NCBI RefSeq assembly: GCF_001447785.1
Contig: NW_015173122.1
Span: forward strand, 755,541 to 819,540
Origin: Gekko japonicus
Taxonomy: Eukaryota
Reading direction: 5' to 3'
Length of the DNA stretch: 64,000 nucleotides
Numbering within the stretch: the stretch's first letter is position 1; each line of letters starts with the position of its first letter. Below are positions 12,340-56,300 of the stretch, one piece after another. The notes below the pieces were generated by a model that was not told the DNA's origin, did not search any database, and was given only the letters and a program-made list of their open reading frames with translations. The position numbers and the translations under genes are program-made.

Positions 12340-12710
12340 CACTTTCACACACACTAAATAATGCACTTTCAATCCATTTCCAGGGCACTTTGCAACTGGA
12401 TTTTACTGTGTGAAACAGTAAAGCCCACTTTCAAATAATCTCTAAAGTGCACTGAAAGTGGACAGAAAGTGCATTATTCCGTATGTGTGAATCACTAAAG
12501 TGCATCAAAAGTGGATTGAAAGTGCATTATTCAGTGTGTGTGGCTCACTAAAGTGCATTGAAAGTGGATTGAAAACACAACATTCAGTGTTCATGAATCA
12601 CTAAAGTGCATCGAAAGTGGATTGAAAGTGCATTATTCAGTGTGTGTGGCTCACTAAAGTGCATCGAAAGTAGACTGAAAGCACATCATTCAGTGTGTGT
12701 TAAAGCACCG
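12340..12710. repeat. Palindromic element whose right arm is expanded into about 5 tandem 53-bp units
   Basis: cactaaagtgcat..gaaagtgcattattcagtgtgtg near 12440, 12493, 12546, 12599 and 12652. The left arm cacactaaataatgcactttcaatcca is its reverse complement. Confidence 0.85.
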
Positions 12711-25863: not shown

Positions 25864-26684
25864 TTAGGTAGCTATGGGGAGATGAATCAACCCAGAGACG
25901 TTCTCATACTTCGGCTCCCGGGACTCCTCCATGGAAGCATCTCCTCCAGCTTCCGCCTCTGGCTGGCCGTGGCTTTGGCCGTGACGCTGATTCTGTCCAG
26001 CCTCCTCGCAGGTAGGAGCCGGCAGGCTTCCCAGAAGGCCCTGGGCCTCAGGGGACTTGGATTCTAGGTCAGGCTTGCCTTGGGAGGGCTGCCCCTTAGT
26101 ACTTTGGTCTGAGTCTGAGGTCCTCTTGGGGGGCACCTGGAGGCCCTCCGTGCCCCGCCCGAGCTTGGGCCCCTCCCTCGGCAGGCTCCCCGGCTGTTGC
26201 TCTGGCCCTCTGCCCCTCCCGTCCCCTTTGCCCACCGTCACATAAATGGTAGTGAGACCTGGCTCTTTGCCCTGAGCAGACAGAGCTGCCTCCAGAGCTT
26301 CCACCCGCTGGGCCACGTGCCGGGAGCCGGAGACCCGTTTCCTGGGGCCGCCTGGGGTGCTCCGCGGAGAGGGCTTGTGGCCCTCCTCCGTCCACGAGCC
26401 GGCCTCCACGTTCTCATAACAGCACTCTGGCGGAGGGTCCTTTTCACCACCCTGGTGAAGCAAGGGAACTTGGGGGAAGCCCCAGGCCGCCTTTGGCTTC
26501 TGGGCGAGGTGGACGGTTTCTGCAGAGCCTCGGAGACTCTGAGGGACGAAGCAGGTGCCTTCGGCAAAGGACACGGAGGGTCGCTTGGCCTTGGCAATGC
26601 TGGACGTGCGAGGGATGGCAAAGGGTTCCAGGTTCAAGGCTGACACTTCGGGGAGGACGCCCGGCTGTGCCCCAGAGTCTGGAA
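25864..26684 (-). CDS. SCARF1: SCARF1 exon 11 (terminal coding exon, cytoplasmic tail)
   Basis: Acceptor tttctttcag|. Reads ..LEPFAIPRTSSIAKAKRPSVSFAEGT..VAQRVEALE..LTTIYVTVG..EPKYENVSGLIHLPIAT-stop (TAA at 25864-25866). Confidence 0.93.
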
Positions 26685-29600
26685 CTGAAAGAAAAGGGAG
26701 GGGTGGTCAGGAAGTGAAGATGAAGGAGACAAAGAAGAAGAAGACAATGAAGACGACGATGAAGAAGACGACGACTAAGAAAAAGCGGAAGGGATTGGAT
26801 TTATACCTCACCCTTCACTCGGAGTCTCAGAGGGGCTTACAGTCTCCTTCCCTTCCTCTGCCCACAACAGACACCCTGTGAGGTAGGTGAGACGCCCTGA
26901 GAGAGGTCTGAGAGAACTGTGACTGACCCAAGGCCACCCAGCTGGCTGCATGTGGAGGAGTGGGGAATCAGACCCGGTTCTCCAGATTAGAGTCCGCCGC
27001 TCCTAACCACCACACCAAACTGGCTCTTCCCTGGGGTTTAGAACCTGCAGTTAGGCAGTGGTTGGGTGGAACTGTGAGGCATGCTGCCATCTGGGACCCC
27101 AAAGACTTTGGATACTTTGGCGGGGGAAGAGGCAGAAGGCAGAAAGCTGAAGCAAGGCCTTGGCACCTTTCTGCATCACACAAGGAGCCAGTTACAATGT
27201 GAGCCCAGCAGAGGTAAAGGTATAGGTTTCCCTTGTTCAAAAGCCAGTCAAATCCGACTCTAGGGATCCGGTGCTCATCTCCGTTTCCAAGCCAAAGAGC
27301 CAGCGCTGTCCAAAGACGTTTCCGTGGTCATGTGGCCGGCATGACTAGATGCCGAGGTGCACAGAACGCTGTTACCTTCCCACCGAAGGTGATACCTAGT
27401 TATCTACTTGCAATTTCTTGCTTTTGAAGGCTAGGTTGGCAGGAGCTGGAACTAGAGATGGGAGCTCACTCCGTCATGCGGCACTCGGGTCTCGAACTGC
27501 TGATCTACCAACCTTCCAGTCTGCAGTTCAGCATCTTGACCACTTGAGCCACTGCACCCCCTGAGCCCAGCAGAGGGAAGGTACCAAATTTCAGGTGGCA
27601 CCTGGACATCTCCCAATATTACAGTTGACCTCCAAATGGCAGAGATCAGTTCCACTGGAGAAAATGGCTGGATCCAAGGCATTACCTCTGCTGAAGTCCA
27701 TTCCTTCCCCAGACCCTGCCCTCCCAAGGCTCCACCCCCAAAATTTCCAGGTACTTCCCAACCCAGAGCTGACAACTCTAGCAGAGGGAAATGACCCTTA
27801 CACACAATGGAAAACAAATCAGCCAGTATCATAATGCCCCTGTATGAATCGATGGTGCGACTTCATTTGGAATACTGTGTGCAATTCTGGTCACCACACC
27901 TCAGAAAGGATATTATAGCATTGGGAATAAGTGCAGAAAAGGGCAACTAGAATGATAAAAGGGTTGGAACCAGTGTTCCCTCTAAGCTGAGTTAGTGTGA
28001 GCTGGCTCACAGGTTTTTAGCCTCCAGCTCACAGATTTTTGTCTTAGCTCAGGAAGGACGGCTCCAGAGCAAACTAATGTATGCAGTAGTCAAATCGTCT
28101 GCTCACAACTTTAATGCGAGTAGCTCACAAAATAGCCTTTTTGCTCACAAGGCTCTGCAGCTTAGAGGGAACATTGGTTGGAACACTTTCCCTATGAAGA
28201 AAGGTTGAAGCGCTTGGGGCTCTTTAGCTTGGAGAAACGACGGCTGAGGGGTGACATGATCAAGGTTTATAAGATTATGTGTGGGATAGAGCAGGTCGAG
28301 AAAGAAGTCCTTTTCTCCCTTTCTCACAATACAAGAACTCGTGGGCACTCAATGAAATTGCTGAGCGGTCGGGTTGGAACAGATAAAAGGAAGTACTTCT
28401 GCACCCAAAGAGTGATTAACACATGGAATTCACTGCCACAGGAGGGGGCTGCAGCTACAAGCATGGACAGCTTCAAGAGGGAATTGGATAAACATCTGGA
28501 GCAGAGATCCATCAGTGGCTATTAGCCACAAGGTATAGATAGGAGCTCTCAATCTGGAGCAGGTGATGCTCTGTATTCTTGGTGCTTGGGGGGGGGAGCA
28601 ACAGTGGGAGGGCTTCCGGCCCCACTCCTGGACCTCCTGATGGCACCTGGTATTTTTGGCCACTGTGTGACAGAGTGTTGGACTGGACGGGCCATTGGCC
28701 TGATCCAACATTTGGCTTCTCTTATGTTCTTATGTACCTGCATCGGTAGGGAGGTGGCAGGCCGGTGCTTCATCCTCATCTGTGTCGGAGAAGGAGCTGT
28801 CCATGGGCCAGGCAGCGGAAGGGGGCTCCAGGAAGCTGGGGGTGAAGGGGATCTCTGCATCGTGGTGGGAGACTGCCCGGGTGGGAAGGAGAGAGGCAAA
28901 GAAGAAAAGGGAGAGTGAGCACAGTCGGGTCAGAAGGCCCTTTCCCTGCAGCTCCCCAAGCGTGGGCAGCTTCTCCTGCCCACTCCACTTCAGATCTTGC
29001 CAGCCAAGGAGGAGGCCGCCAGTCATGTCTTGCCTGTGGAATGTGCCCTGTCAGCTTGTGGGACCTCCAGGGAAGGTCAGACTTGTTTGTGCTGGGGAAC
29101 AGCCACAAGTGCCAGCTCTGCAGGTGCAAGATTCAGTTTCCTGATCGGCCAGGGAAAGGGTGGGGTGGGGGGTAAAGTATGCTTTGCTCCTGCTCCTAAG
29201 TAGCCAGAGTAAAATAAATTACACAACGTAAGCAGAAATATATCGATTTGCTTATGATGAGCCGGTGCGTGGGTCACAAATGGGATCATGGTTCAGATCT
29301 CTTCTCAGCGCAGATTGCTGTGAGAATAGAAAGAAAGGACCCACTCAGGTGTCAAATGAATCAATGAAACTGTCTAACACTGAACCGGGCCATCAGGACC
29401 AGGTATGAATAAATATTCTAATCTGATCTGGTAAGAAGAAGCAGGGGAAGAAGAGAGAAAGGGGAGAGGAGGAAGAAAAAAGGCGAAGGAAAAAGGAAGA
29501 CATGTACGAAGTTGAGCCAAAACCTGCAGTTTTCTGCAAGGAAATCTGTTTATTCGATTTCCACTTTGCCCTTTCTGAAAGGGTCTTAGGGAGGGGCCGT

Positions 29601-32600
29601 GGTTCAGTGGTAGAGCGTCTCCCTTGAACGCAGAAGGTCCCAGGTTCAATCCCCAGCATCCCCAATTAAAAAGGATCAGGCAGCTGGTGATGAGGAAAAC
29701 CTCAGCCAGAGACCCTGGAGAGCCACTGCCAGTCTGAGTAGGCAAGACTGACCTTGACGGGACCAATGGTCTGATTCAGTGTAAAGCAGAACAAAGTGTG
29801 AGTCCGGTGGCACCTTTAAGACCAACAAAGTTTTATTCAAGGCTCATGAAAGCTCATACCTTGAATACAACTCTGTTGGTCTTAAAAGATGCCACTGGAC
29901 TCAAACTTTGTTCTACTGCTTCAGACCAACAGGGCTGCCCACCGGAATCAGTATAGGCCGTTTTCATGTGTGTTCATGTGACCTACTTGGCTGGGGCCCA
30001 ATCCGGTTGGGTCACTGGAGCACAGCGCCTGATGCTGCCCTGGCCCAGAGCGCCACCTGCTGGTCCACCTCTCTCAAGATTCTCAGGCTCATCTCAGCTC
30101 TTGCAGGGCCAGGGCTTCTGTCCTTATCAGGCCAGCCACAATCGATGCCCCAAGACACGCCGACTTTTCCACACAGTTTTAGAGGCTGTGAATATGCGCT
30201 TGACCTTTCTCACATGTATGTTTACAACGAATACTGAGTTCGGTTACTCAGCCCAGGCCTGGCCACAGGAGACACTGGACTCCAGACTCTCTTCTCACCT
30301 GTCACCCGTGGAAGCTTGTAGCCCCCCAAAGAGAAGCAGGGGAAGGTGGAGTGGAGGTTAGCCAGCGCCCCCTGCACATGGTGCTTCACCTGGGAGACTG
30401 GGTCCCCATCTGCAGCGGCCACCCTAGGAGAGGAAATTAACAGACATGGATTTCACACCAACAGTGCACCAGGAATACAGGAGGTAACATAACTCTTTCT
30501 GCCGCTCCAATGCTTTTCTGCCACAGGGAACCAGAACAGGTGGTATGGGCCCAATTTTACCCCCCCCATCCTCCCTGAATGTACAGGGGTGTGGATATGA
30601 TTGACTACTCCTCTGTTCAAAAATTCTTTCACGTAGAAATCTAGCCTGCTTCTTGGCATGCTGCTTTTCCACAGGCAGGGAATTTTGTGCATGGAGAGAC
30701 ATTCCATCCTCCATTTTAAAATCCTTTCATGTAGAAATCTAGCCTGCTTTTTGGCGTGCTGCTTTCCCACAGACAGGGAATTTTGTGCATGGAGAGACAT
30801 TCCATTCTCCGTTTAAAAATCCTTTCATGTAGAAATCTAGCTTGCTTTTGGCGGGCCACCTTTCCACATGCAGGGAATTTTGTGCATGGAGAAACATTCC
30901 ATTCTCCATTTAAAAATCCTTTCATATAGAAACCTAGCCTGCTTTTTGGCATGCTACGTTTCCACATGCAGGGGATTTTGTGCATGGAGAAACATTCCAT
31001 CTGTTTAAAAATCCTTTCATGTAGAAAACTAGCCTGCTTTTTGGCATGCTGCTTTTCCACATGCAGGGAATTTTACACACGGTGACACATTCCATCCTGC
31101 CTGGTCTCTTTCTGAACTCAGGCCAGGCACCTGAGCACCTCCATTGTTGCCCCTACCCACCTGGCTACCTGTCCAGTTTGCTGACAGAGGTGTTTTCTAC
31201 ATGCCAAAGGTTCTATACACCAAAGCTTCTGAAACTGCCAGTTCAATGCAGTGGCAATATGGCTTCCATGTGCCCCACATTTCCCCTGCCCCAGACCTCT
31301 ATGTCAGCCTCTCCCTGCCAGCAGCACCACTGGGTGTCTTTTTTTAAAAAACTGGTTAACTGTCAAGTCTCTATAGCTTTTTAACACTATAGCAATTTGC
31401 CAACTCCAAGTCAAGAGCTGGGTAACAGCACAGCATGTGACAAGGGGGGGGGGTGGATCCCATTACACTTCCCCGCCCCTACTCTCAGAGGAAATGGCCC
31501 CAATGTGGATGGGACAGGGAAGGATCTAGCTTTTCTCATCCACCCGGCTTTGCTGAGTTCTTTTTGAAAAGATCGTAGTAAAGCAGGTTTAAGAGAGCAG
31601 AAAAACTGGAAAGTGCTTGAAAGTACCATGATGCCATGTGGAAGTGGGAATGAACCCATTTCCTGTTAGCACTGGAGGCAGAACAAATGCTCAGTGTAGA
31701 AGTGAGGACAGACAGCAACCTATGAGCTGACAAGGGGCACTGGCCACTGGAAGCTAAGCAGCGTCAGCCCTGGTCAATATTTGGATGGGAGAGCACTGCA
31801 GAAGTCCAGGGTTGTGAGGCAGAGGCAGGCCATGGCAAACTTCCTCTGTTAGTTCCTAGCCTTGAAAACCCTACAGATTCACCATAAGTCAGCTGCGACT
31901 TGACAGCAAAACAAAACAAAACAACAGTAGCCCAAATCTGGCGCCTAGTGATGCACCACTTAATCCATAAATTGCCACCTAATCTCCCCCCCCCCCCCCC
32001 CCCCCCAATTCCTCCTGTCTGTAGAGAAAAATACGGTAGGAGGACAAAGGTATGGGAAAAGATGTTGGATATTGTAATTCTGCATGCAAGAGGATCTGGC
32101 CGCACTGGTGGACCTCTTGAGGGACCCTGGTTTTTGGCTACTGCGTGACACAGAGTGTTGGACTGGACGGGCCATTAGCCTGATGCAACATGGCTTCTCT
32201 TCTGTTCTTATGTTCTATGGTTACACTTGGCAGTTGACCCCAACCTCTCATCAGTTAGATGCTTAGCCTCTTTGGCCATGGATTGCCTTCTGTTTTTCAT
32301 CTTATATGAGACCTTCTCTCTCTTAACTGGGATTGGAGCTGTAGCAAGTTAACCTTTTTTACAGTTAATCTGTTCACAATAAGTTAAATGTACCTACATG
32401 AACATGTCATGTAAGATGTGCTTCTATATTTGTAAGTAAAATTTCTTTCTCTTGTTACCATTGGAGTCAGATCATCTTTGTAATTTGTTTGAACAGCATT
32501 TCCCCCTTCACTGGGAAACGTGGAGGATCGGGGATACTGCGTAAAGCTTCGGTGCTTCTAAAGCAAATGATTTATTTATTTTTACATTTAACCCAATAGA

Positions 32601-35600
32601 AGAAGGGGAGGATCTGTGGTGCTCCCTTTTGACTGCTGTCTCCACTGTAATTTAGCCCCTCTAAGTGTTTTAGATAAGGGCTTCACACAGCACCTGGCGC
32701 AGTTGGTGGCTCGATGCAAGTACCTGTCATTGGTGGCCATTGGAGCTGATCGGCAGCAGAAGCAGCAGCAGATGCAGAGCAGGAGGAGCAGCAGCAGTGG
32801 GGTCAGGATGCCCGCTAGAAGGACTTCTTGCCTCTTGCCTCCTGGAGGAAGAACGGAAGTCAGACAGAGCAGGGAACATAACCCCCAGCGATGTGGCTGG
32901 TCCAGGATCCCAGGAGGCACTAGCCACCTCCACACTGCAAATTCAAACCAGGGACAGCCCCAGGTCCCACGAGAGACAAAAGGTCACTTACTCCACTGGC
33001 AGGCCCCAGAAGATGGGTGGCACAGGCCCCCAGGGCAATGGCAGACCTCGGAGCAGTTAGGCCCATAAAACCCATCCGGGCAGGTCTGGTTGCAGCTGCA
33101 AGGAGACAGAATGACATGGCAAGTTCCCAGTTGCAGCCAAGCAGCCTGGGCAATGGCACTGCCCCACCCACCTCCATACACCCCTTTTACCTAGTGCCCC
33201 GGTACCCGGGCTGGCACACACACGCCCCAGACACTGGATCACAGCTCCCGTTGAAGCAGCTTGGACAGACAAGGAGGCAGCCTTTCCCAAACAAGCCGGG
33301 GGGACAGGGCAAGTCACACCTGTGGGGAGAGAGAGGGGGCGGGAGAGAGTCTTGTTCCTCAAAGTGACTGGACTATGTTGCTACTACTCTACTATGTTCT
33401 GGGGTGGGGGGGGAGCCCTTGTTGGAGGGCCACACCAAACAGCTGAACCTGCACCTCCATCCCATCACACCCTCCCTGGCCTCTGCCCTGCCTCCTTGTG
33501 AGACCGTGCATGCATAGAGTTGCCTCCAGCTATCGTATAGGTGGGGCGGGGCCTAGGCCCCCATTTTTAGGGGCAAACTGGGTCCCTACCTGGCACCTCA
33601 GAAGCCTGGTCCAGTTCCGGCCTAGGCCCCCATTTTTAGGGGCAAACTGGGTCCCTACCTGGCACCTCAGAAGCCTGGTCCAGTTCCGGCCTAGGCCCCC
33701 ATTTTTAGGGGCAAACTGGGTCCCTACCTGGCACCTCAGAAGCCTGGTCCAGTTCCGGCCTAGGCCCCCATTTTTAGGGGCAAACTGGGTCCCTACCTGG
33801 CACCTCAGAAGCCTGGTCCAGTTCCGGCCTAGGCCCCCATTTTTAGGGGCAAACTGGGTCCCTACCTGGCACCTCAGAAGCCTGGTCCAGTTCCGGCCTA
33901 GGCCCCCATTTTTAGGGGCAAACTGGGTCCCTACCTGGCACCTCAGAAGCCTGGTCCAGTTCCGGCCTAGGCCCCCATTTTTAGGGGCAAACTGGGTCCC
34001 TACCTGGCGCCTCGGAAGCCTCATCCAATGTTCCAGCCTAGGCCCCCATTTTGAGAGGCAAACTGGGTCCCTACCTGGCGCCTCGGAAGCCTCATCCAAT
34101 GTTCCAGCCTAGGCCCCCATTTTGAGAGGCAAACTGAGTCCCTACCTGGCGTCTCTGAAGCCTAGTTCACAGTTCCGGCCTGGGCCCCCATTTTGAGAGG
34201 CAAACTGGGTCCCTACCTGGCGTCTCGGAAGCCTAGTTCAGTTCCGGCCTAGGCCACCATTTTGAGGGGCGAACGGGGTCCCTACCTGCTGCCTCGGAAG
34301 CCTGGTACACAGTTCCGGCCTAGGCCACCATTTTGAGGGGCGAACGGGGTCCCTACCTGCTGCCTCGGAAGCCTGGTACACAGTTCCGGCCTAGGCCACC
34401 ATTTTGAGGGGCGAACGGGGTCCCTACCTGCTGCCTCGGAAGCCTGGTACACAGTTCCGGCCTAGGCCACCATTTTGAGGGGCGAACGGGGTCCCTACCT
34501 GCTGCCTCGGAAGCCTGGTACACAGTTCCGGCCTAGGCCACCATTTTGAGGGGCGAACGGGGTCCCTACCTGCTGCCTCGGAAGCCTGGTACACAGTTCC
34601 GGCCTAGGCCACCATTTTGAGGGGCGAACGGGGTCCCTACCTGCTGCCTCGGAAGCCTGGTACACAGTTCCGGCCTAGGCCACCATTTTGAGGGGCGAAC
34701 GGGGTCCCTACCTGCTGCCTCGGAAGCCTGGTACACAGTTCCGGCCTAGGCCACCATTTTGAGGGGCGAACGGGGTCCCTACCTGCTGCCTCGGAAGCCT
34801 GGTACACAGTTCCGGCCTAGGCCACCATTTTGAGGGGCGAACGGGGTCCCTACCTGCTGCCTCGGAAGCCTGGTACACAGTTCCGGCCTAGGCCACCATT
34901 TTGAGGGAAGAACGGGGTCCCTACCTGGCGCCTCGGAAGCCTGGTTCACAGTTCCGGCATTCCCCCGTTTGGGGGTGACAAGCCTCCCCTTGGTAGCAGC
35001 GGGGGCAGAGCTCTGCACAGTTATCCCCATAGCGCCCCAGGAGGCAGAGTTGATTGCAGCGGGTCCCATTCCAGCCAGCATCACAGGCCAAGCAGAATCC
35101 ATCTACCGGAGAGCAAGGCTGTCTCTGCTTGCAGTGGCCGCAGCTGTGTGGGTAGAGAGGAAGAGTGGTCAGCCAACCCCCCCAGGCACTGGTGTGGGAT
35201 GGGGGGTAGGGTTGCCAGATCCAGGTTGAGAAACTCCTGGAGATTTGGGGGATGGAGCCTGGGGAGGACCAAGACCTCAGTGGGGCCCAGTGCCATAGAG
35301 TCCATCCTCCAAAGCATCCATTTTCTCCAGGGGAACTGATCTCTGTGCTCTGGAGATGAGGTATAATTCTGGGGGATCTCCAGGTTCCACCTAGAAGCTG
35401 GCATCCCTAGCCTCGCAGCTTCAGCGGGATCAGTGCCACAAATGACATCTGCTGGGCCAAGGTGTGCTTTAAAAACAGGGCGATCTCGGAAGCTAAGCAG
35501 GGCTGACCCTGGCAAGTAATTGGAAGGGAGACCTCCCACTGCTGGACCTCCTGATGGCACTGGTATTTCTGGCGACTCTGTGACACAGAATGTTGGACTG

Positions 35601-38600
35601 GATGGGCCTTTGGCCTGATCCAACATTGGCGTCTCTTATGTTCTTATATTCAAGGAATACCAGGGCCAGGACGCAGAGGCAGGCAACCAAGCCACCTCTC
35701 TGAAACGTTTAAAAACTCCACTAGGGGTCGCCATGACTTCCAGACATGCAAGCACATACATACACACACACACAAACCGCCCCCCCCAAAAAGAGGGCAA
35801 GCTTTCTAGTGCCTTCCTCAGGGAACATGAGTAGAGAATTGCTGTGTATGCTGCTGCTTCACAAGACTTCCCGTTCTGTAATCGGACACATGAAGCTGCC
35901 TTATACTGAATCAGACTCACCCCTGGACCATCAAGGTTAGTATTGTCTACTCAGACTGGCAGCGGCTCTCCAGGGTCTCAGGTGGAGGTCTGTCACTTCC
36001 TACTTTGTCCTTTTAACTGGAGATGCTGGGTACTGAACCAACTGGAGACCTTCTGCGTGCAAAGAGCCATGGCCCCTCCCCAGATCTAAGAATCCTCGTC
36101 ATGCAGTCTCGTCCCATTCAGACCAATGGGCATTCTGCATCTATTTTTGCAACTGGATCGCCATGCCTCTTTGCCTCTGCAGAGGGGCCAGCCCAGGGTC
36201 ACCAGTTCTGTGTCTGGGGGTCGAAACAGAGTGTCTTTTTCTGGCCACTCACCTGTATCTGCACTGCAGCCCAAAGGTCCCAGCAGGACAGGGGTCCGTA
36301 CACCTCTGGCCCTGGTAGCCGGCATCACATGTGCACTGTCCGTCTTGGGGGCTGCAGGTCCCATGCAAGCACTGGCACTGCTGCTGGCAGGATGGCCCCC
36401 ACGTCCCTGCCCTGCACTCACATCGGCCAGTCTCCTGGGCACAGGGTGAATGGTTGCAGTGGCAGGGAGAGGAGCACTTCCTGCCCCACCATCCAGGGTC
36501 GCAGAGGCAGCGACCAGTCGCTGGGTCACAACGAGAGCCGGCCAGGTTGCACTGGCACTGCTTCTTGCAGTCCGGCGCCCACCAGCCTTGCTTGCAGTGG
36601 CAGGTTCCAGTGAGGGGGTTGCAGTGGCCATGGGGGCCACACTGGCAGGCAAACTGGCACAGCGCCCCCCAGCGGCCGGGGTGACAGGTGCACTCTCCAC
36701 TGGCTGGATCACACTTCCCGTAGGGATAGCAAAGGCAGCGCTCTTTGCAGTCGGGGGCCCAGTATTCATCAGGGCAACCTGCACGGGAATGGAGATTGTG
36801 AGAAGGAACCACGGGGAGGGTCCTGCAGTCCTCGACTCCACCGAATGGCAGCCTCCAAACTGGAAGCCAGAATAGAAGGAATTTTATTTTTTTTATTTCA
36901 CTTTTACCCCGCCCTCCCTGCCAGGCGGGCTCAGGGCGGCTTCCAAAAACTGATAAGCAGTATACATTTTGCAGTAATAGAATAAAATACATCATTTAAA
37001 AACATAGACAAGTCAATATAAAACATTCATTCGATGGCGATAAAAATAAAGTGCAGTTCAGGGACACATTCAGCGGTGCCACCGCATTAGGTCATGTTGG
37101 ATCGGAGTTCACACAGGGCACTGCTGGTAGGACGTCGCTCCTAGCGGAACGCCTGCCTAAAAAGTTCTGTTTTCACGGCCCTGCGGAACTGTGACAAGGA
37201 AGGACCAAAGAAAGATGACGGGTATCAGTCTGCCTATTGGGGTATCTATACCCCATTTTTCTCCCCAGTGGGAACCCAAAGCAGCGTACAACATCCGGCT
37301 TGCCTCCTTCATTTTATCCTCACAACAATTTTACATAAGAACATCAGAAGAGCCCTGCTGGATCAGACCAGTGGTCCATCTAGTCCAGCATCCTGTCTCA
37401 CACAGTGGCCAACCAATTTCTCTGGAGGGACAACAACAGGGCACTGAGGCTGAGACGTTCCCCTGATGTTACCTCCTGGCCAGTGTTCCCTCTAAGCTGA
37501 GTTAGTGTGAGCTAGCTCACAGTTTTTTAGCCTCCGGCTCACACATTTTTGTCTTAGTTCAGGAAGGAATTTATGCAGTAGCCAAATCACTTGCTCAAAA
37601 CTTTAATGCCAGTAGCTCACAAAAGTAGAATTTTTGCTCACTCCACAGCTTAGAGCAGGGGTGTCGAACTCATTTGTTATGAGGGCCAGATCTGGCATAA
37701 ATGACACCTTGTTGGGCAGCGCCATGTGTGTCATAAAATGTAATGCCAGGTAGCGGAGATATAAACTTTATAAAGAACACAAACACAAAGGAGATTTTTT
37801 AAAATTTAAAATAAAAACACACTTAAAACATTAGCACTCCTGCAATATTTTGTTTATTTAACAATGTCTGATAACTGACTGAATTATTGCATCAAAATGT
37901 CTGTGCTGTTGCAATCTTGCTGTTCAGGTGTGTATCCGTAAGCTGCAAACCTACAATGACGCAGCAGCAGCAGAACTGGAAGAAGAAGCAGAAGACAGCC
38001 AGTTCCACTGGGCCTCATAGAAGCCCTCCGGGGGCCTGATCCGGCCCCCAGGCCGCATGTTTGACACCCCTGGCTTAGAGGGAGCATTGCTCTTGGCCCT
38101 GGGATACAGAGGTTTAATACCTCTGAATGTAGAGGTTCCCCTCAGTCACCAAGGCTAGTAGCCATTGATAGACTTATCCTCCATGAATCTACCTAATCCC
38201 CTTTTAAAGCTGTTTATTCCTGTGGCCATCACTACAATTTTAAAATAAATTTTATTGGTTTTCACTTTATTTATAGCCCACTTTTCTCACTGAGACTTAT
38301 GGTGGGTGACACACAATGTTCCCTCTAAGCTGTGGAGTCTTGTGAGCAAAAATTCTACTTTGTGAGCTCCTGGTATTAAAGTGTGCGATATGGCTACCGC
38401 ATAAATTAGTTTGCTCTGGAGGCATCCAAAAATCTGTGAGCCGGAGGCTTAAAAACTGTGAGCTAGCTCACACTAACTCAGCTTAGAGGGAACACTGGAC
38501 CAGAATCTTCCATGTTGGAACCAGGGGTTTCCCAGGCCCTACTCCTGTCAAGCTCAGGCCACACTCAAGTTAACTTTTGTTTCTTTAGGTCTCGCTTTTC

Positions 38601-41600
38601 TCCTTTCCCTTCGCTTGTCATGATGAATTCCTGAGGAGGTGGTCTGTTGTGGGACTGCATGGGGGTAGTAGCCATAACCGTTTCTTAAGCTGTGCCCCAG
38701 GAGTTGGTTCTCATGAGATCAACCTTGGAGACTCTTTTGCCTAGCTGGGTTACATAGGGCACCATATATCTGTTTGTGTTGCCATATAAATGCCCGGGGG
38801 GGGGGGGAGGTGTGACATATGCGTGTGTGGGGTTTTGTGCTTTTACCTATAACCTGTGATTTCCCGCGGTTTTCTTCAGTCCTAACAAAAGCTCTTGCAC
38901 CTACAGCAAGCATATCTCTAATAAAGCATTTCACTGCCAATAGTGTGTGTGGAGAGTGTCTTAGCTGGGGACCTGACAACTCCAGGGGTCCCCAAGAGTC
39001 CTAAACCCTTCCATCTTGTCAAATCCAGCCTTGAATTCCTACTTTGCCACAGACGCTTGCTGGGTGACCCAGGGCCAGTCACACACTGCCAGTTTAACCC
39101 ACCTCACAGGGTTATTATGAGGATGCAATGGAGGAGAGGAGAACAATGTGAGCCCCTTAGCAGTGTTCCCTCTAAGCTGAGCTCACAGTTTTTTAGCCTC
39201 CAGCTCACAGATTTTTGTCTTAGCTCAGGAAGGATGGCTCCAGAACAAGCCAATTTATGTAGCAGCCAAATTGCTGGCTCACAACTTTCATGCCAGTGGC
39301 TCACAAAGTAGAATTTTTGCTCACAAGATTCCATAGCTTAGAGGGAACGTTGGGTCTCCACCTGGGGAGAAAGGTGGGGTGTATGAACTACCCTCCTCCT
39401 CAGGCAGGAGGACAGCACTGAGCAGGCCTGTTCCACAGCTGGACCCTCCATCTTATTGGGATATTTGGGGAGTATGGCAGAGTTTTGCCCAGTCACAGAA
39501 GCGTGATCCTGCGTGCAGTCAATAAAGCTCCCAAGAAGTATATTGCAAAAAAGGTAAATTTACACTTATTCAAGTAGATTCAGTTCACATTCAGGTTGCA
39601 GGTGGAAGAAGAAGAAAAAGAAGGAAGAGGAGATTGGATGTATACCCCATGGCCCTTCACTACCCGAAGGAGTCTCAGAGTGGCTTACAATCGTCTTTCC
39701 CTCCCCCTCCCCACAACAGACACCCTGTGAGCAGTGTTCCCTCTAAGCTGAGTTAGTGTGAGCTAGCTCACAGTTTTTTAGCCTCCGGCTCACAGATTTT
39801 TGTCTTCGCTCAGGAAGGAGGGCTCCAGAGCAAACTCATTTATGCAGGAGCCAAACCGCTCGCTCACAATTTTAATGCCAGGAGCTCACAAAGGAGAATT
39901 TTTGCTCACAAGACTCCGCAGCTTAGAGGGAACATTGCAGGCTGTGAGGTGGGTGGGGCTGAGAGAGCTCTCCCGAGAACTGCCCTTGAGAGAACAGCCC
40001 TGAGAGAACTTGTGACCAACCCAAGGTCACACCAGCGGCGGCATGTGGAGGAGTGGGGAATCAAACCCGGTTCTCACAGCTTATAGAGTCTGCGCCCCTA
40101 ACCACTACACCAAACTGAAAGAGAAGCCTAATCCAAAGAGTACTTTCCCTTTCACAAATGGCCAGCTAATCCAGCATCATGTGCGTGGACGTAGGAGGGA
40201 ACTGTAACCGCGGGAGAGACCTGCAGAGACATGTGTCCCCAGGGAAGGCCATGTGCTGAAGTGAGAGGACAAAAACAGCAAGCGTCAGAGAGCAGTTCCC
40301 AGGTTAAGACAAAGAGGCATCCCATTCAAGGAGATAAGACCAGTACATGCTTAGAGTAATGTAGCACCCCCCACAATGTCCAGGCGTGCTGAATCGCTCA
40401 CTCCAACACATTCTCAGCGACCACAGCCTTCAGCCACATGGGGACCCCTGGGACCCCAAAACTGCAGGCCCTGGCAAGAAATGCGTGGGGGGGAATGCGG
40501 CAGATTTCACAGCTGCATGGGACTTTCAGTCCATAAATAACCAACTTCCTGCTTTGCATACTCCCCCTCCCTCAAGTGAAACTCACGTGTAATACAGTTG
40601 GCCCCAAAGAAGCCAGGCTTGCAACGGCAAAGACCAGGTCCCACGCATACTTCCTCTTCTTGGCACGCAGAGTCTCCTTCGCAAACGGCTGGCAAGGGCA
40701 CAAGAAGACGCGTGGAGGTGTCAGGGCTCTGGTCATGTTGGCATGAAGAGCCCAGCCACGACTGGGCCCTGTGCACCGATTTCCTCATTTGCCCAGGCCA
40801 GCAGCTGGCTAGAGTCTAGGGCTGCCAATTCCCAGGTGGGGCCTGGGGCTCTCCCAGCATTACAACTGATAAAAAAGGAAGTAGTTCTTCACCCAAAGAG
40901 CGATTAACACATGGAATTCACTGTCACAGGAGGTGGCGGCGGCTACAAGCATGGATGGCTTCAAGAGGGAACTGGATAAACATATGGAGCAGAGGTCCAT
41001 CAGTGGCTGTTAGCCACAAGGTATAGATAGGAACGCTCAGTCTGGGGCAAGGGATGCTCTGTATTCTTGGTGCTTGGGGGGGGGGGCAACAGGGGGAGGG
41101 CTCCTAGTGTCCTGGCCCCACTTCTGGACCTCCTGATGGCACCTGGTATTTTGGGCCACCGTGTGACAGAGTGTTGGACTAGATGGGCCATTGGCCTGAT
41201 CCAACACTGGCTTCTCTTATGTTAACTGCTGACCAGGCTGGAGAGATCGCTTCACCCTTGAGAAAAATGACTGCTTTGGAGGGTGGGCTTCATCTGGTTC
41301 CTCCCATTGCCCTCTCCAGGCTCCACCCCCAAATCTCCAAGAATTTCCCAACTGCTCTATCCCACTAGAATCCGGCTTCTCCCACCATCCCTCAGGAACC
41401 ACCTTTTCAAGCCTGGCTTAGGCTGAATGCGAGGCAGAGGAGAGGAAAGTGGGGGGGGGGAGACAATAGAAAAGAGAGATGGACAGAGGGGGACCAAAGC
41501 CCCCACACTCACCCACTGTGCACTCTCGGCCTTCTTGCTTCCAGCCAGAGCAACAGGTGAGAACGTGGGTGTGGCTGGCAAGGACAAGAGAGAGGGGGGG

Positions 41601-43358
41601 AGTCACAAACCCCCTCTTTATTCTAGCCCCACAACTGCTGCTTGGAGGAGAACCACCAACATGGCACTTTGCCAGCTCCAGGTGTTTGATGACCACACTC
41701 GCCCCCCCCCCCCCATGCTCACTCAAGAAACCGCAATTCCTATTCCAGGGGCTCTGCCGGTTGGTGCCTTCTTCCTGATTATTAGGGCTGCCAACCTCCA
41801 GGTGGTGGCTGGAGATCTCCCGCGATTACAACTCATCTCCGGGCGACAGAGATCAGTTCCGTCGGAGGAAATGGCGGCTTTGGAAGGTGGACTCTATGGC
41901 ATTAGACCCCACTGAAGCCCCTCCCCTCCCCGAACCCTGCCCTCCTCAGGCTCCACCACCGAAATCTACAGTTATTCCCCCTCCCCCAGAGCCGGCAGCC
42001 CTACTGTTTATTGCGGAAGGTCCCAAACATTTCATTTCTCGCTTGTGCTCTTGAAAAAAGTGACCGCAAAGTCCCGCAAAGCAGGAGAACTTTGATAAGA
42101 GCCGAGGTGTCAGTTCAAAGCGAAACATCACGCTCAGCTCTTTGGTAAGGTCACAAAAAAAAAACACTAGTAGAAAAGGGTTTTATATGCTTTTTGGAAC
42201 TTTGAAACGGAGCATACCTGGACTGACACAGACCGGTAGGAAACGCAGCACAAAAGGAAGCACAGAAAATGAAGTTTGGGGACCCCACCACCAAACAGGC
42301 AGCACAGCATCACACACAACCCCAGACCTCCCCCAAAGCTCCCCCTGCTTGTCCTCCAGAGTAGGCGATTCACCACCCAGGCTGTGCCTAGGGCAGGAGC
42401 TGCCCAGTGATCTCCCAGAATTACAATCTGTAATTCTGTAGGGTTGCCAGATCTGGGTCGGGAAATCCCTGGAGATTTGGGAGAGAGGGTCTGGGGAGGA
42501 TAGGGACTTCGGGGGGGGGNNNNNNNNNNNNNNNNNNNNNNNNNNNNNNNNNNNNNNNNNNNNNNNNNNNNNNNNNNNNNGAGGAGGAGGAGGAGGAGGA
42601 GGAGGAGGAGGAGGAGGAGAAGATTGGATTTATACCCCGCCCTTCACTACCCAAAGGAGTCTCAGAGCGACTTACAAACTCCTTTCCCTTCCCCTCCCCA
42701 CAACAGACACCCTGTGAGGTGGGCGGGGCTGAGAGAGCTCTGACACAAACTGCTCTTTTTCAAGGACAGCTGTGCCAGAGCTTGTGACTGACCCAAGGTC
42801 ACATCAGCAGGTGCAAGTGGAGGAGTGGGGAATCAAACCCGGTACTCCCATATTAGAGTCCGCACACTTAACCACGACACCAAAGCAGCCATGTTCTCCT
42901 GGGGAACTGATCTCTTTCCCCGGGAGATCAACTGCACTCCCAGACCTCCAGCCACCACCTTGAGATGGGCAACCAGAATTACAACCGATCTCCAGACTAC
43001 AGAGACGCGTTCCCTTGGAGGAAATGGCCCCTTTGGAGGGTGGGCTCTGCGTCATTCTACCCTGCGGAGGTCCCTCCCCTCCCCAAATCCTGCCCTCCCC
43101 TGGCTTTTCACTGCCATATTTCCAGGAATTTCCCAGCCTGGAGTTGGCCGCCATAGCCTGTGCCTCCCCCCCACCCCCAGGGACCAGGCAGCTCAACTCT
43201 GTTCTCAGCCCAGGGTCATCCTAATGCGACTGCCGCCACCGGGCCTACCTGCCTTACCCGCAGACATGTTTCCCATTGGGGTCCAGCTCAGAGGCATACG
43301 TCCCAGTCCTTGGGCCCTGGACTTGCAAGAAGAGAACCAAGAAGAGCAGCGACTCCAT
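25864..43358 (-). CDS. SCARF1: SCARF1 (scavenger receptor class F member 1, SREC-I), complete 11-exon gene model, 2442 nt / 813 aa
   Basis: Exons 43258-43358, 41513-41574, 40587-40688, 36253-36778, 34925-35143, 33191-33319, 32992-33095, 32724-32841, 30299-30423, 28738-28872, 25864-26684. All introns are GT-AG with consistent phases. Signal peptide, EGF-like repeats, one TM helix, tail with AIPRTSSIAKAKRPSVSFAEGT and C-terminal YENV. Flanked by SLC43A2 and RILP. Confidence 0.95.
27214..27561 (-). mobile_element. Sauria-type SINE
   Basis: Reverse-complement copy; TSD tgagcccagcagagg on both sides. Confidence 0.85.
27809..28735 (+). mobile_element. CR1 LINE 3' fragment with nested MITE (27971-28176)
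   Basis: [61 protein letters not shown]; tcttatgttcttatgt tail. Confidence 0.93.
27971..28176. mobile_element. About 200-bp hAT-type MITE, TIR CAGTGTTCCCTCTAAGCTG (other copies 3454-3649, 8356-8561, 14433-14637, 23360-23546, 37481-38089, 38314-38497, 39161-39352, 39732-39937, 47785-47991, 51602-51807)
   Basis: TIRs with 8-bp TSDs: gttggaac here, cccaccac at 47785, gttgcgat/gtcgcgat at 51602. Confidence 0.9.
28738..28872 (-). CDS. SCARF1: SCARF1 exon 10
   Basis: VSHHDAEIPFTPSFLEPPSAAWPMDSSFSDTDEDEAPACHLPTDA; 135 nt; donor CAG|gtacat abuts a CR1 tail. Confidence 0.88.
30299..30423 (-). CDS. SCARF1: SCARF1 exon 9
   Basis: VAAADGDPVSQVKHHVQGALANLHSTFPCFSLGGYKLPRVT; 125 nt; ctag| and |gtgaga. 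Confidence 0.92.
30620..31097. repeat. Tandem repeat, about 5 units of 95-98 bp
   Basis: aaaatcctttcatgtagaaatctagcctgc...ttttgtgcatggagagacattcc recurs near 30620, 30718, 30816, 30913 and 31008. Confidence 0.92.
32724..32841 (-). CDS. SCARF1: SCARF1 exon 8 (transmembrane helix, Cys-rich juxtamembrane segment)
   Basis: GKRQEVLLAGILTPLLLLLLCICCCFCCRSAPMATND; 118 nt; donor AG|gtactt. Confidence 0.9.
32992..33095 (-). CDS. SCARF1: SCARF1 exon 7
   Basis: CNQTCPDGFYGPNCSEVCHCPGGLCHPSSGACQW; 104 nt; donor |gtaagt. Confidence 0.93.
33191..33319 (-). CDS. SCARF1: SCARF1 exon 6
   Basis: CDLPCPPGLFGKGCLLVCPSCFNGSCDPVSGACVCQPGYRGT; 129 nt. Confidence 0.93.
33552..34957. repeat. Minisatellite, 20 units of 69/71 bp, made of the SCARF1 exon-5 3' end, its splice donor and the intron start
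   Basis: Unit starts (cctagg) at 33552, 33621 ... 33966 (69 bp), 34037, 34108, 34179, then 34248 ... 34887 (71 bp). Every unit contains ccctacctg. Confidence 0.97.
34925..35143 (-). CDS. SCARF1: SCARF1 exon 5 (EGF-like)
   Basis: CGHCKQRQPCSPVDGFCLACDAGWNGTRC...CHPQTGECRNCEPGFRGA; 219 nt; acag| and |gtaggg. Confidence 0.93.
36253..36778 (-). CDS. SCARF1: SCARF1 exon 4 (EGF-like repeats)
   Basis: RCPDEYWAPDCKERCLCYPYGKCDPASGEC...PAGTFGLQCRY; 526 nt; gcag| and |gtgagt. Confidence 0.95.
36875..37190 (-). mobile_element. L2-like LINE 3' end (related remnant at 62545-63240)
   Basis: Both sites share ggccctgcggaactg and tgagggcggctt..tttatt termini. Family assignment is from recalled similarity. 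Confidence 0.5.
37656..38072. mobile_element. hAT (Charlie-like) non-autonomous element, TIR CAGGGGTGTC(G/A)AAC
   Basis: 8-bp TSD gcttagag; nested in the 37481 MITE. Confidence 0.9.
38546..38978 (+). mobile_element. Solo LTR
   Basis: TGTCA...TGACA ends, 5-bp TSD actcc, TATAAA at 38785-38790, AATAAA at 38920-38925. Confidence 0.85.
40587..40688 (-). CDS. SCARF1: SCARF1 exon 3 (EGF-like)
   Basis: AVCEGDSACQEEEVCVGPGLCRCKPGFFGANCIT; 102 nt; ccag| and |gtgagt. Confidence 0.94.
40870..41222 (+). mobile_element. CR1 LINE 3' fragment
   Basis: Same subfamily as 28380-28735. Confidence 0.88.
41513..41574 (-). CDS. SCARF1: SCARF1 exon 2
   Basis: HTHVLTCCSGWKQEGRECTV; 62 nt; ccag| and |gtgagt. Confidence 0.92.
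43258..43358 (-). CDS. SCARF1: SCARF1 exon 1 (signal peptide)
   Basis: MESLLFLVLFLQVQGPRTGTYASELDPNGKHVC; 101 nt; donor GG|gtaagg. Confidence 0.92.
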
Positions 43359-50336: not shown

Positions 50337-53300
50337 NNNNNNNNNNNNNNNNNNNNNNNNNNNNNNNNNNNNNNNNNNNNNNNNNNNNNNNNNNNNNNNN
50401 NNNNNNNNNNNNNNNNNNNNNNNNNNNNNNNNNNNNNNNNNNNNNNNNNNNNNNNNNNNNNNNNNNNNNNNNNNNNNNNNNNNNNNNNNNNNNNNNNNNN
50501 NNNNNNNNNNNNNNNNNNNNNNNNNNNNNNNNNNNNNNNNNNNNNNNNNNNNNNNNNNNNNNNNNNNNNNNNNNNNNNNNNNNNNNNNNNNNNNNNNNNN
50601 NNNNNNNNNNNNNNNNNNNNNNNNNNNNNNNNNNNNNNNNNNNNNNNNNNNNNNNNNNNNNNNNNNNNNNNNNNNNNNNNNNNNNNNNNNNNNNNNNNNN
50701 NNNNNNNNNNNNNNNNNNNNNNNNNNNNNNNNNNNNNNNNNNNNNNNNNNNNNNNNNNNNNNNNNNNNNNNNNNNNNNNNNNNNNNNNNNNNNNNNNNNN
50801 NNNNNNNNNNNNNNNNNNNNNNNNNNNNNNNNNNNNNNNNNNNNNNNNNNNNNNNNNNNNNNNNNNNNNNNNNNNNNNNCCCGTCCCGTCTAGGGGCCAC
50901 TCACACCGTGTAGGCCTCCTCGATCGAGGTGGGCAGCCGCGTTAGTCTGTCTGTAGCGGCAGTTAGTCTGTCTGTAGTTAGTCTGTCTGTAGTTAGTCTG
51001 TCTGGAGCTGCGGTGGCTCAAGTGGTTCAGACGCTGAACTGGAGGCTGTGGAAGGTTGGTAGTTCAGCAGTTCGAGACCCGGGTGCCGCATGACGGAGTG
51101 AGCTCCCGTCTCTAGTTCCAGCTCCTGCGAACCTAGCAGTTCAAAAGCAAGAAATTGCAAGTAGATAAATAGGCACCACTTCGGTGGGAAGGTAACAGCG
51201 TTCCGTGCGCCTTGGTGTTTAGTCATGCCGGCCACATGACCACGGAAACGTCTTCGGACAGTACTGGATCTTCGGCTTGGAAACGGAGATGAGCACCGCA
51301 ACCCTAGAGTCGGATTCGACTGGCTTTTGAGCAAGGGAACCTTTACCTTTACCGGCAGAGAAAAGCAAGAGTCCAGGAGCGCCCTAAAGACTTACAGAAT
51401 ATTGTGGCAGTATGAAGCAGTGACTAACGGAAGCTCGTACCCTACCACTGATTTGGTTAGTCTTTAAGGTGCTACTGGACTCTTTCTCTTTTTCTACTGT
51501 GTAGGCCTGACCTGGATAACCCAGGGTAGGCCAAAGCTAAGCTGGGACAGCCATGGTTAGTATTTTGATGGGCGATCACCAAGGGTGTCCAGGGTTGCGA
51601 TCAATGTTCCCTCTAAGCTGAGTTTGTGTGAGCTAGCTCATAGTTTTTTAGCCTCCGGCTCACACATTTTTGTCTTAGCTCAGGAAGGAGGGCTCCAGAG
51701 CCAACTCATTTATGCAGCAGCCAAATCCCTTGCTCACAACTTTAACACCTGTAGCTCACAAAGCAGAATTTTTGTTCACAAGACTCCACAGCTTAGAGGG
51801 AACATTGGTCGCGATGCCAGATATCTCTGAACGTCTCTTGCCCCCAAAACCCTACAGGGTCGCCATCAGCCAGCTGCAGATTGATGGCCCTTTCCACCAC
51901 ACTGTGTAACTCCTCCAGCCTGGGAATGTCTCTCTTCACCTCTCCATCAAATGGGTGTGTGTGTCTTCCAACATGCATTGTCATGTGATATGGGGAAGGT
52001 AGTGCACGCATCGATGCATGTATCTCTGGAAGGTGTCATGTGCCCCTCAATAGAATGGAGAGGGGGTGCATGTATGACGCTATGCACTTGGTAGGGCAGC
52101 GCAGTGGAGTGCTGGGACAGGCAGTTTTTCCAAGGCTTCTGCTGGCCGGATTCCCAGGGAAAGGACTTTGTGCCTATTTAATTCCCCTCTCCCCCCAACC
52201 CCAACCCCCAAATAGACATGAACCTGCCTTATACTGAATCAGACTGTGGGTCCATCCAAGTCAGTATTGTCTGTTCAGACTGGCAGTAGCTCTCCAGGGT
52301 CTCAGGCGCAGGTCTTTGAGAGCCAGTTTGGTGTAGCGGTTAAGTGTGCGGACTCTAATCTGGGAGAACGGGGTTTGATTCCCCACTTCTCCACATGCAG
52401 CTGCCGGTGTGACCTTGGGTCAGTCACAAGTTCTCTCAGCTGTTCTCTCACGAGGAGTTCTCAAAAGAGCTCTCTCAGCCCCACCTACCTCACAGGGTCT
52501 GTGTTGTGGGGAAGGGAAAGGAGATTGTAAGCCGCTCTGAGACTCCTTCGGGTAGCGAAGGGCGGGGCATAAACCCAATCTCCTCTTCTTCTTTGACATC
52601 ACCTGTTACCCAGTCCTTTTAACTGAGTGTGCTGGCGGGATTGAATTGCACGCAGATGCTCTACCACGGAGCCACTGGCCCCTCCAAGACTTGACTTGGC
52701 CCATCAGCTGCTTCTGCTGTCCTCCTCTGCCCTGTCAACTTGATGCCCCTGCTGTGAAAAGCGAAGGCCTGGCTGGAGGGGAATGCGCAGGACCACTCTG
52801 ACCTCGTTGCTTCCTCTTCCCGCAGGATGGGGAGCAGACCCTCTCGGAAGGCCAGAAGAGAGAGCACCTGATGCAGGTGCGCCTGGCCCAGGTGGAAGAG
52901 GAGAACCAGAAGCTCTTGGCCCAGCTGGCTGGTGGACAGTCCCAGGCAGGTGAGAGAGGCTGGGCTGATTTCTTGAGGAAATGTGCATGCCCACCCTAGA
53001 ACCAGGACTGTAGCTAGGCAGGGGCAATGCCCCCTCCTGAATTTGTGATGCCCCCACCTTGGAAGTATGGCAGACCCACTCACACACACACACCCCGGGC
53101 AGCCACCTTCTTCTCCAGTGGCCCGCCTGGTCCCTTGGAACAACACTGCTTGACCGTTCATGCTGGTAGGAACGTCCTGTTCATGGCAAATGCCCAGTTT
53201 TTAATTAAAAAAAAAAGGAAAACAAGCCCCAAAGGCGAGGAGGGGTATGTGTGTTCACGGGAGGGCGCTCAGTATTTCCCCACCTGCTGTTATTCCCCCT

Positions 53301-56300
53301 CGGAGGACCTTTCTCCTTCCTCGTCCTGGTCTTCTGATACTCACGACAGCCCCCTGCATGGGGCCCTTTCTCCAGTTCTTCTATTTTTATTTATTTTATT
53401 AACCTTGTGACCTCAGAAGTGATGTCATTCCCCCCACTGAAAATCGTCCAGCTACGGGGCTACTAGACCTTTTCAGGGTGGCCCATCAGGTGAAAATATA
53501 CGGTGTTGGTCTGTAGTGTGAGAACTGGATCCGTGGTTGGTAGTCAGATTCCTTTTGAACCACTTGTGCGGTGGTTGGGCCCCCTTTTGAGGCATCTCTT
53601 AGAGGAAGAGGCCATTCCATCCCAAAATGCCAAGTCTGCGTTGCATGGCCTTCTGTTGGGTGTTACAAGTTAAAACACTTTTCAGTATTTACTGGGTTAA
53701 TGATGTTTGTTAAGTCACATGTTTGTTTGTATCCAATCTGTTTTGGACAGTTAGAAAGCCCGGGAAGTTCAGATCTAGTTTGTTGTTCTGATTGGAGACC
53801 AAAGTGCCAAGTATGAGCATTTTATGGCTTCTCTTCCCGTCTTGTGGTTCTTTGTTCTGACCAAGAAGAAGAAGCCTCTCCTTCTGCCATTTTCAGTCTA
53901 GCTGTAAGGATGTAGGCATATAAGCACTTTGTTATTTTACATCCCATGTACCTTTTCCCCATGCTAAGTTGTAGTAAACTTTTATTCTTTTAAACACACC
54001 ATGGACTCTGCCTCTTTAATACTCTGCTGATTTACTTTAAAATTAAGAATACCTAACACCTTCGGAGCTGCGGTGGCTCAAGTGGTTAAGACGCTGAACT
54101 GCAGGCTATGGAAGGTCAGTAGTTCAGGAGTTCGAGACCCGGGTGCCACACGACGGAGTGAGCTCCCGTCTCTAGTTCCAGCTCCTGCCAACCTAGCAGT
54201 TCGAAAGCAAGAAATTGCAAGTAGATAAATAGGGACCACTTCGTTGGGAAGGTAACAGCGTTCCGTGTGCCTTGGTGTTTAGTCATGCCGGCCACATGAC
54301 CACGGAAACGTCTTCGGACAGCGCTGGCTCTTCAGCTTTGAAACGGGGATGAGCACCGCAACCCTAGAGTCGGATTCGACTGGCTTTCGAGCAAGGGAAC
54401 CTTTACCTTTTAACACCTTCCAGGGGAGGTCTCCTTGGCTTTTGCTCATAAACTATCTTGTCGGGGAAAAGAGGAACCAGACTGGAAGGGGGTCTTCTCT
54501 GGCTGGGAAATGTGACTTCATCATTGTGCGGACTGTGGTTGCACAAATGTTGCTGTTGGGTAGTGCCCGTTGACCACCCTGGGAAGCCACGGCGTGTGTC
54601 TCTTGCATGCCGTTTTCAGAGTCCCTTTTGTGCGGCTTCTCCTTTGGTGCAGCGTATGTGCTGGGTTTTTGCTGTGCTTTTGCAGGCCCTAAAATGGTGA
54701 GAAGTCGTAACGCACCAGCAGGGCTGTCTCACCCTTGCCCCAGGGCCTGTCAGTCTTGCGAGCTGCGTTTTTGCTTCGTCGCTACTGGAGCGCCATGTCT
54801 CGCGCCTTGATCTTTTAAAGAAGGAAATTGGTTGGCTCAGTGACAGGTAGTTCTTGTTGTTCAGCACACAGGCACACGTGGGGTGCCAGTAAAGTGACTT
54901 TCTTGACTAGGTGTGGGCAGCAGGCAGCAGGTCTTCTAGGGCAACCTGTTCCCACAGGCAAAATGTCCTGATGTCATCATCTGAAATTTAATTAGCACGT
55001 CGACATGCATGTTCTGACCTGGATGGCCCACGCTGGTCTGATACGGTCAGATCTCGGAAACTAAGCAGGGTTGGCCCTGGTTAGTCCTTGGATGGGAGAC
55101 CTCCCAGGAAGTCCAGGGCTGTTATGCAGAGGCGGGCCATAGCAACCGACCCCTGTTCGTCTCAGCTGCAACTTGATAACGCTCTCCATCACCCTCCTGG
55201 CACAGACTGAAGTCATTATTCGGACAGTTAGGTTGAGTGTAGCAGACAAAAATACAGCAAATGACTTATTACACAGTGTATCAGTAAGCAATTAAAGGCA
55301 TAATACTTACCTATAAAACGAAAGTAATGTATACGGCAGCCTACTGAACTGGCATGTCTACTGTCACTGATCATATGACACAAGTGAATATTACATGAAA
55401 AGCCACTGGGCCAAACGCGTTTCTGCCCCAAGGGCCTTCTTCGGTGGCCTCAAACCGTGTGGTGCGCACGTGAAACATAAAATATCGTTTAAGGGCCAGG
55501 CAGGTTTGGACTGAATCCTGAAAAAAGTAAAGAGTTGTTTGGACAGCGCCAAGGGGGAAAGTGGCTGAAGAGAACAGGAGGAGCCCGCGATGGGGGCAAG
55601 GGGGCGGGTGACGGAGGGCCCCCGTGGAGCTGCTGGAATCATAGAATCATAGCGTTCGAAGGGGCCATACAGACCATCTAGTCCAACCCGCTGCCCAGTG
55701 CAGGACCAGCCCAAAGCATCTCAGACAAATATTCGTCCGGCGGCTTCTTGAAAGCTGCCAGTGAAGGGGAGCCAACCACCTCCCTAGGCAGCTGATTCCA
55801 CCTTTGAGCCACTCTGGCCGTGAAAAAGTTTCTCCTAATATCCAGCCGATACCTTTCTGCATGTAATTTAAACCCGTTGCTTCGGGTCCTGTCCTCTGCT
55901 GCCGACTGGAACGGCTCCTTGCCCTCCTCCAAATGACAGCCTTTCAGATATTTAAAGAGAACAATCATGTCAGCCCCGTAGCTAGGGAATATTGGGGGAG
56001 GGGGCTTCAGGGGGGGGCCCTGTCCGCTAATTAAATGGAAGTACAGTGCAGGTGGTAAGTTGGAGCACTTTGGAGGCAGCCCGGGAGGGAGGAAGCCCAG
56101 AAGAAACAATAGGGGGCCAGGCCCCATGGGCCCCATGTTAGCTACGGGCCAGAATCAAGTCCTGGCTTGAGGCCGGGGGCTGCTTGTGCGAGGCTCTCCC
56201 CCGTTTGGTTTCAGACAGGACCACGCGCCAAGAGAGGGAGGTGATGCTGCGACTCAAGGAGGTGGTGGACCAACAGCGGGACGAGATCCGCGCTCAGGCC

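Follow-up and report, generated by a model that had tools for sequence, protein, structure and literature searches.

The window, a stretch of 64,000 nucleotides of Gekko japonicus DNA, hosts on its minus strand the SCARF1 gene. The coding span (25864..43358) is split into 11 exons and encodes 813 amino acids; the exon model coincides at 813/813 residues with protein P0001, named 'scavenger receptor class F member 1 [Gekko japonicus]'. A search with exon 4 finds the human SCARF1 structure 8hna (E 1.9e-51). The model features an EGF-repeat ectodomain, a transmembrane (TM) segment encoded by exon 8, and a long tail, and its best matches are SCARF1 proteins; judging from these matches, the gene carrying the array described below is the SCARF1 orthologue. 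Exon 5 (34925..35143, minus strand, 219 nt, phase 2-2) can be skipped in frame. Exon 6 (33191..33319, minus strand, 129 nt, phase 2-2) supplies Cys338; its acceptor lies at 33319, where the original prediction had placed it, in both the gene model and an RNA contig joint. In 101 of 112 homologues, no gap interrupts the alignment at the junction of exons 5 and 6. A limited literature search found no paper on gecko SCARF1. Two segments are missing from P0003, a Gekko kuhli model: residues 264-336, corresponding to exon 5, and residues 380-453, in the exon 7-8 region that includes the TM segment. The model was set aside as evidence of exon skipping, being an automated record labelled UNVERIFIED_CONTAM and possibly a prediction error.

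The junction between exon 5 and intron 5 is reiterated by a minisatellite located at 33553..34958 on the minus strand, made of 20 head-to-tail units of 69-71 bp (61.7% GC). TRF reports it at 33550-34958, with period 71, 20.0 copies, 96% matches and a score of 2062, by far the highest among the 23 rows obtained for the window. The motif CAG/GTAGGGAC is present in 20/20 units. Unit 1 (34888..34958) comprises the last 34 nt of exon 5 (which ends at 34925 with the authentic donor) together with 37 nt of intron, and is the only one coding for the native RNCEPGFRGAR peptide. It is followed on the transcript by nine identical 71-bp copies (units 2-10, 34249..34887), which differ from unit 1 at 5 positions, by four distinct transitional units of 69, 71, 71 and 71 bp (units 11-14, 33967..34248), and by six identical 69-bp copies (units 15-20, 33553..33966), which carry a 2-nt deletion in the exon-derived part. 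Splitting the array into units thus agrees with the original prediction of a real exon end at 34925 followed by 19 more intact donors, and comparing the units one by one bears out the two homogenised blocks, of 71 and 69 bp, with transitional units in between. The unit had also been correctly described as spanning the donor, but its parts measure 34 nt of exon (32 in the 69-bp type) and 37 nt of intron, rather than about 33 and 38. A search of the genome with one array unit gave at least 20 matches, all falling inside this array.

The possibility that the array is coding was discarded, as stops interrupt all six frames over its length. Two stop-free frames that show no sign of translation, at 33447-34112 (plus strand, 221 amino acids) and 33530-34108 (minus strand, 192 amino acids), extend through the 69-bp block, whose unit length, being divisible by 3, preserves the frame. 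A second minisatellite, with five units of 98 bp, is found at 30611-31098 within SCARF1 intron 8, clear of splice sites, and a tandem repeat of five 53-bp units lies at 12437-12700.

The assembly is fragmented (191,500 contigs), and the array could in principle be a product of misassembly. In a DNA sequencing run from the same species (X1), however, contig depths add up to 942-1561 at the listed unit positions, against 87 in the flank, a ratio of about 11-18 that is inflated by contig overlaps. Several contigs of this run consist of units, and one of 1042 nt has its first 61 letters on a unit. An array is therefore present in the species, and the suspicion of an artefact, raised with the original prediction, is largely refuted as to the existence of the repeat; since an array is found in a related species as well, an artefact is extremely improbable. 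The exact make-up of 20 units is a different matter. It was not reproduced by X1, the one same-species DNA run examined, which could be seen as a sign of misassembly. The window allele was put through a de Bruijn simulation for comparison with the X1 contigs. It predicts a flank contig that stops at 34878, and a second contig of 101 nt, nine times as deep (about 780), in exact agreement with 34907-34846. The observed flank contig ends instead at 34929, and depth is 100 at 34846-34858, so that the nine-copy block is not found at the expected depth. Similarly, depth is 116 for the letter at 34895, which is carried by ten window units, and an X1 contig of depth 89 has three letters absent from all 20 window units. 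X1 probably represents a different allele, although its contigs are filtered and simplified, which could contribute to the discrepancy. The array appears to vary between individuals, and the exact count of 20 may be specific to the allele or to the assembly.

The comparison of intron 5 with that of another species, suggested earlier as a check, revealed an array of the same kind. Organism B (run X16), whose exon 5 (219 nt) differs from that of the window by 8 substitutions, features a contig of 101 nt (71+30), as expected for a perfect cycle of 71 bp. The depth of this contig is 70, against 8.12 in the flank, and corresponds to about 8.6 copies, or roughly nine. Because organism B carries a 71-bp array, the repeat likely predates the split of the two species, and is still turning over.

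Reading past the first donor leads directly to an in-frame TAG (34921..34923, minus strand; intron positions +2 to +4), the translation ending ...GAR before the stop. The stop is where the original prediction had located it, but it is not a special feature of this intron. Half of the SCARF1 introns (5/10) are in phase 2, and phase-2 introns starting with GTAA, GTAG or GTGA spell a stop by themselves; a stop at +2 to +4 is accordingly found in four of the five (introns 1, 4, 5 and 6). Since all 19 decoy donors lie behind the same stop, their use would yield one and the same product of 337 amino acids, identical to that of intron retention. Nonsense-mediated decay (NMD) is commonly triggered by stops located more than 50-55 nt upstream of an exon junction. 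Between the stop and any junction formed by a decoy lie at least 67 nt, and five more junctions follow downstream; by this rule decoy transcripts are predicted NMD targets. Of the two outcomes envisaged for decoy usage, a premature stop upstream of the TM exon in NMD-prone transcripts is thus borne out by the gene model, whereas a secreted ectodomain is unlikely. The 337-residue chain would terminate one residue before Cys338 and include 57 cysteines, one of which would be unpaired, which makes its efficient secretion doubtful.

The 20 donors are hardly distinguishable by sequence. Positions -3 to +8 of the authentic site are identical in 19/19 decoys, and the predicted energy of the duplex with U1 is -11.2 kcal/mol, a mid-to-strong match within the range of the ten SCARF1 donors (-5.8 to -13.3). 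Silencing of decoys by RNA structure was considered and ruled out, as the authentic donor is predicted to be equally buried: the probability that positions +1 to +6 are unpaired is 0.003 for the authentic site and about 0.004 for units 2-10. With identical sequence and similarly low predicted accessibility, what separates the donors is their position. Exon 5 measures 219 nt when spliced at the first donor, and would measure 290-1554 nt when spliced at the decoys.

When the units are read in the exon frame, signs of coding constraint appear limited to unit 1, since missense changes, stops or frameshifts are found in every other type. Units 2-10 feature E-to-V and A-to-S replacements and unit 12 two missense changes; stops are found in units 11, 13 and 14, and frameshifts in units 11 and 15-20. 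The donor 11-mer (-3 to +8) is the longest invariant block among the seven unit types, in which 20 of 71 columns vary. The probability of such invariance is 0.04 when computed for a 9-mer, 0.10 leaving out CpG columns, and 0.14 when clustered changes are counted once. Together with the persistence of the array in two species, the invariance of the donor could be at most a hint of selection.

Each unit begins after CTAG or CCAG and contains CAG/GT, and could therefore be seen as a micro-exon bounded by AG and GT, or as a recursive (AG/GT) splice point. This is hardly credible. The pyrimidine fraction at -20 to -4 is 0.41-0.53 for both types of AG, but 0.71-0.94 for the ten real SCARF1 acceptors; in addition, the spacers would be only 37 nt long, and the inclusion of pieces of 32 or 34 nt would shift the frame. 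Both options were discarded because of the poor pyrimidine content upstream of the unit AGs.

Seven of the 24 sequencing runs, the DNA runs X1 and X16 among them, were compared with the stretches on either side of the array interior (33646-34845). Runs X3 and X4, belonging to different studies, are guessed to be RNA, and the splice joints found in them support this assignment. In X4, a minus-strand contig of 384 nt at depth 3.99 aligns in two parts, letters 1-303 with 35225-34923 and letters 307-384 with 33314-33237; the two placements are taken as one contig record because length, depth and strand are the same. Letter 301 corresponds to 34925 and letter 302 to 33319, the GT at letters 302-303 fitting either side of the joint, and no space is left for a 71-nt extension. 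In X3, a contig of 154 nt reaches 34923 on the window and continues for 84 letters beyond, and a second contig shows the joint between exons 4 and 5. The first donor, 34925, is thus used in RNA, as documented by one crossing contig at depth about 4 and a partial one.

The same X4 contig lacks intron 5 and retains the 3' end of intron 4 (35144-35225), either because intron 5 is spliced first or because intron 4 is retained. Another X4 contig (151 nt, depth 2.3) is unspliced over the intron 5/exon 6 border, and may derive from pre-mRNA, intron retention or DNA.

Usage of the decoys, postulated in the original prediction, found no support in these data: the sole crossing contig takes 34925, the contig of the second study breaks off there too, and no contig extends into the array, though at low depth. 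RNA contig depth was 0 on 34846-34910 in both X3 and X4, where coverage is low and contigs drop rare forms; similarly, no RNA contig covered 33436-33645, which at such depth is no proof of absence. No alternative donor was seen in the X3 and X4 contigs, at a depth (about 4) and in a setting in which NMD would hide the products. Three raw RNA runs (X21-X23, of 16.8, 16.3 and 14.4 million reads) gave 2, 0 and 2 reads, respectively, on 32700-33645, the reads falling on exons 6-8; none of the reads listed spanned intron 5, the counts being too low for power.

The SCARF1 array belongs to a known class of minisatellites that span an exon-intron junction and reiterate its donor, represented by F7, CBS, LMNB2 and the amphioxus 'mirages'. 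Intron 7 of human F7 hosts a polymorphic 37-bp VNTR whose first monomer straddles the exon-intron border; according to the available portion of PMC1557585, only the most upstream donor is used, constructs of 1-6 and of 8-12 monomers behave alike, and donors farther away compete less well. The gecko array shares with F7 the border-spanning first monomer, the identical downstream pseudo-donors and, in the one contig that crosses the intron, the choice of the most upstream site. It differs in unit length (69-71 bp versus 37 bp), in its 20 copies, and in the exon-derived part of the unit, 34 nt rather than 4 nt. In addition, the SCARF1 decoys are all located behind one stop, which two of the F7 pseudo-sites avoid, as far as described in that text (PMC1557585).

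The same source, in its available part, mentions additional human arrays of the same architecture. The authentic donor alone is used in LMNB2 (10-15 units of 100 bp) and PDGFA intron 4 (16-18 units of 81 bp), the closest to SCARF1 in unit size and copy number (both via PMC1557585). In contrast, two nearby pseudo-sites are used as well in CBS intron 13 (15-20 monomers) and in the interferon-inducible gene 6-16, which hosts 25 pseudo-sites (via PMC1557585), while none was seen to be used in the low-depth SCARF1 RNA contigs. In the amphioxus 'mirage' minisatellites, copies of exon-intron borders are arranged in tandem and homogenised in blocks, and splicing is undisturbed (PMC3087553, available text). 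Tandem border copies and concerted evolution in blocks are found in SCARF1 as well; mirages vary in copy number between haplotypes, and the array described here is distinguished by its squamate host and by its presence in a related species too.

It was originally suggested that differences in copy number could tune the output of the receptor, the share of splicing taken by decoys growing with the number of units and feeding either NMD or a soluble 337-residue ectodomain. In favour of the hypothesis, 19 decoys are intact, with the same -3 to +8 sequence and the same U1 energy (-11.2 kcal/mol) as the authentic donor, and alleles appear to differ, as seen by comparing X1 with the window. Precedents can be found in the accessible sections of three papers: CBS and 6-16 make use of pseudo-sites close by (PMC1557585), heat shock activates latent donors lying behind stop codons (PMC3510495), and soluble splice forms similar to SR-F1(20-353) exist in humans (PMC7137648). 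It is nonetheless improbable. No RNA contig was found inside the array, and the crossing one, though of low depth, takes 34925. As reported in the available parts of PMC1557585 and PMC5954066, donor choice in F7 and one-unit retention in ABCA7 are both independent of copy number, and distant F7 donors are less competitive (PMC1557585). The 337-residue product itself has an odd number of cysteines, and its transcript is a predicted NMD target. One product from all decoys, and the lack of effect of F7 and ABCA7 repeat length on decoy use (PMC1557585, PMC5954066, in the text available), both speak against tuning by copy number.

ABCA7 suggests a different way in which length could matter. Intron 18 of this human gene hosts a 25-bp VNTR for which, in the available parts of PMC5954066 and PMC13747324, retention of one unit is NMD-sensitive and independent of repeat length, while skipping of exon 19 rises with length. 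As in SCARF1, the ABCA7 units carry a donor, and retention of one unit leads to an NMD-sensitive premature stop; unlike in SCARF1, the ABCA7 repeat contains no exonic sequence and attains lengths of kilobases, and length affects exon 19 skipping rather than decoys, as far as the same texts report. By analogy, array length in the gecko could alter the in-frame skipping of exon 5 or exon 6, with loss of 73 or 43 codons, respectively, resulting in a shorter membrane receptor. Each of the two exons is in phase 2-2, with a length divisible by 3, and in ABCA7 it is exon skipping that rises with length (PMC5954066). This is unlikely all the same, as the array lies 234 nt from the exon 6 acceptor, whose pyrimidine tract (0.94) is joint-best in SCARF1. 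Moreover, joints between exons 4 and 5 (X3) and between exons 5 and 6 (X4) have been observed, while no skip joint has, and only a loose contig end could show one in the stretches examined, neither of which included both exons of a skip. It is conceivable, yet scarcely probable, that the array was kept, its U1 site intact, through speciation at the level of Gekko as a stress- or temperature-sensitive sink. In an ectotherm, heat-induced latent splicing to the nearest decoys, or length-dependent skipping of exons 5 or 6, would lower or reshape SCARF1, and the make-up of the allele would set the gain.

The array, a donor-reiterating intronic minisatellite, is likely tolerated as a near-neutral repeat, in which the first donor is used and the 19 extra ones are almost silent, as the predicted choice of the spliceosome is the first donor, which the X4 contig indeed uses. 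A 71-bp segment across the end of exon 5 would have been duplicated first, probably helped by a GCC shared by the start of the unit and the 3' flank, a microhomology that fits a slippage-type event. Slippage or unequal exchange may subsequently have amplified the units and homogenised the blocks. Exon definition from the exon 5 acceptor would favour the donor producing the 219-nt exon, as the F7 precedent suggests. Any leak would most likely involve unit 2, and the resulting transcripts, keeping the TAG at +2, would be removed by NMD.

The locus brings a reptile into a documented class of repeats, with signs of differing alleles and persistence in a related species as modest extras. With 20 identical donors behind one stop, the array could also serve as a natural minigene, in which the choice of the first donor by exon definition could be weighed against the stop-dependent suppression of latent donors described in the available part of PMC3510495, a purpose already served by F7. 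It would gain greater weight only if allele length proved to change receptor levels or isoforms.

A search of Pfam with 36 other ORFs of the window gave no matches. At 52841-61017 (plus strand), exons arranged head-to-head with SCARF1 are matched in tblastn searches by the N-terminal parts of the fused squamate models P0007, P0025 and P0029. These models carry the domain PF11461, which we take to be RILP. One query segment matches twice, at 56214-56336 and 60895-61017, and a gap of Ns (50337-50879) separates SCARF1 from these exons. As the fused models imply that the two genes lie in the same-strand order in other squamates, and the gap falls between them, the head-to-head arrangement reflects either a misorientation in the scaffold or a real inversion.
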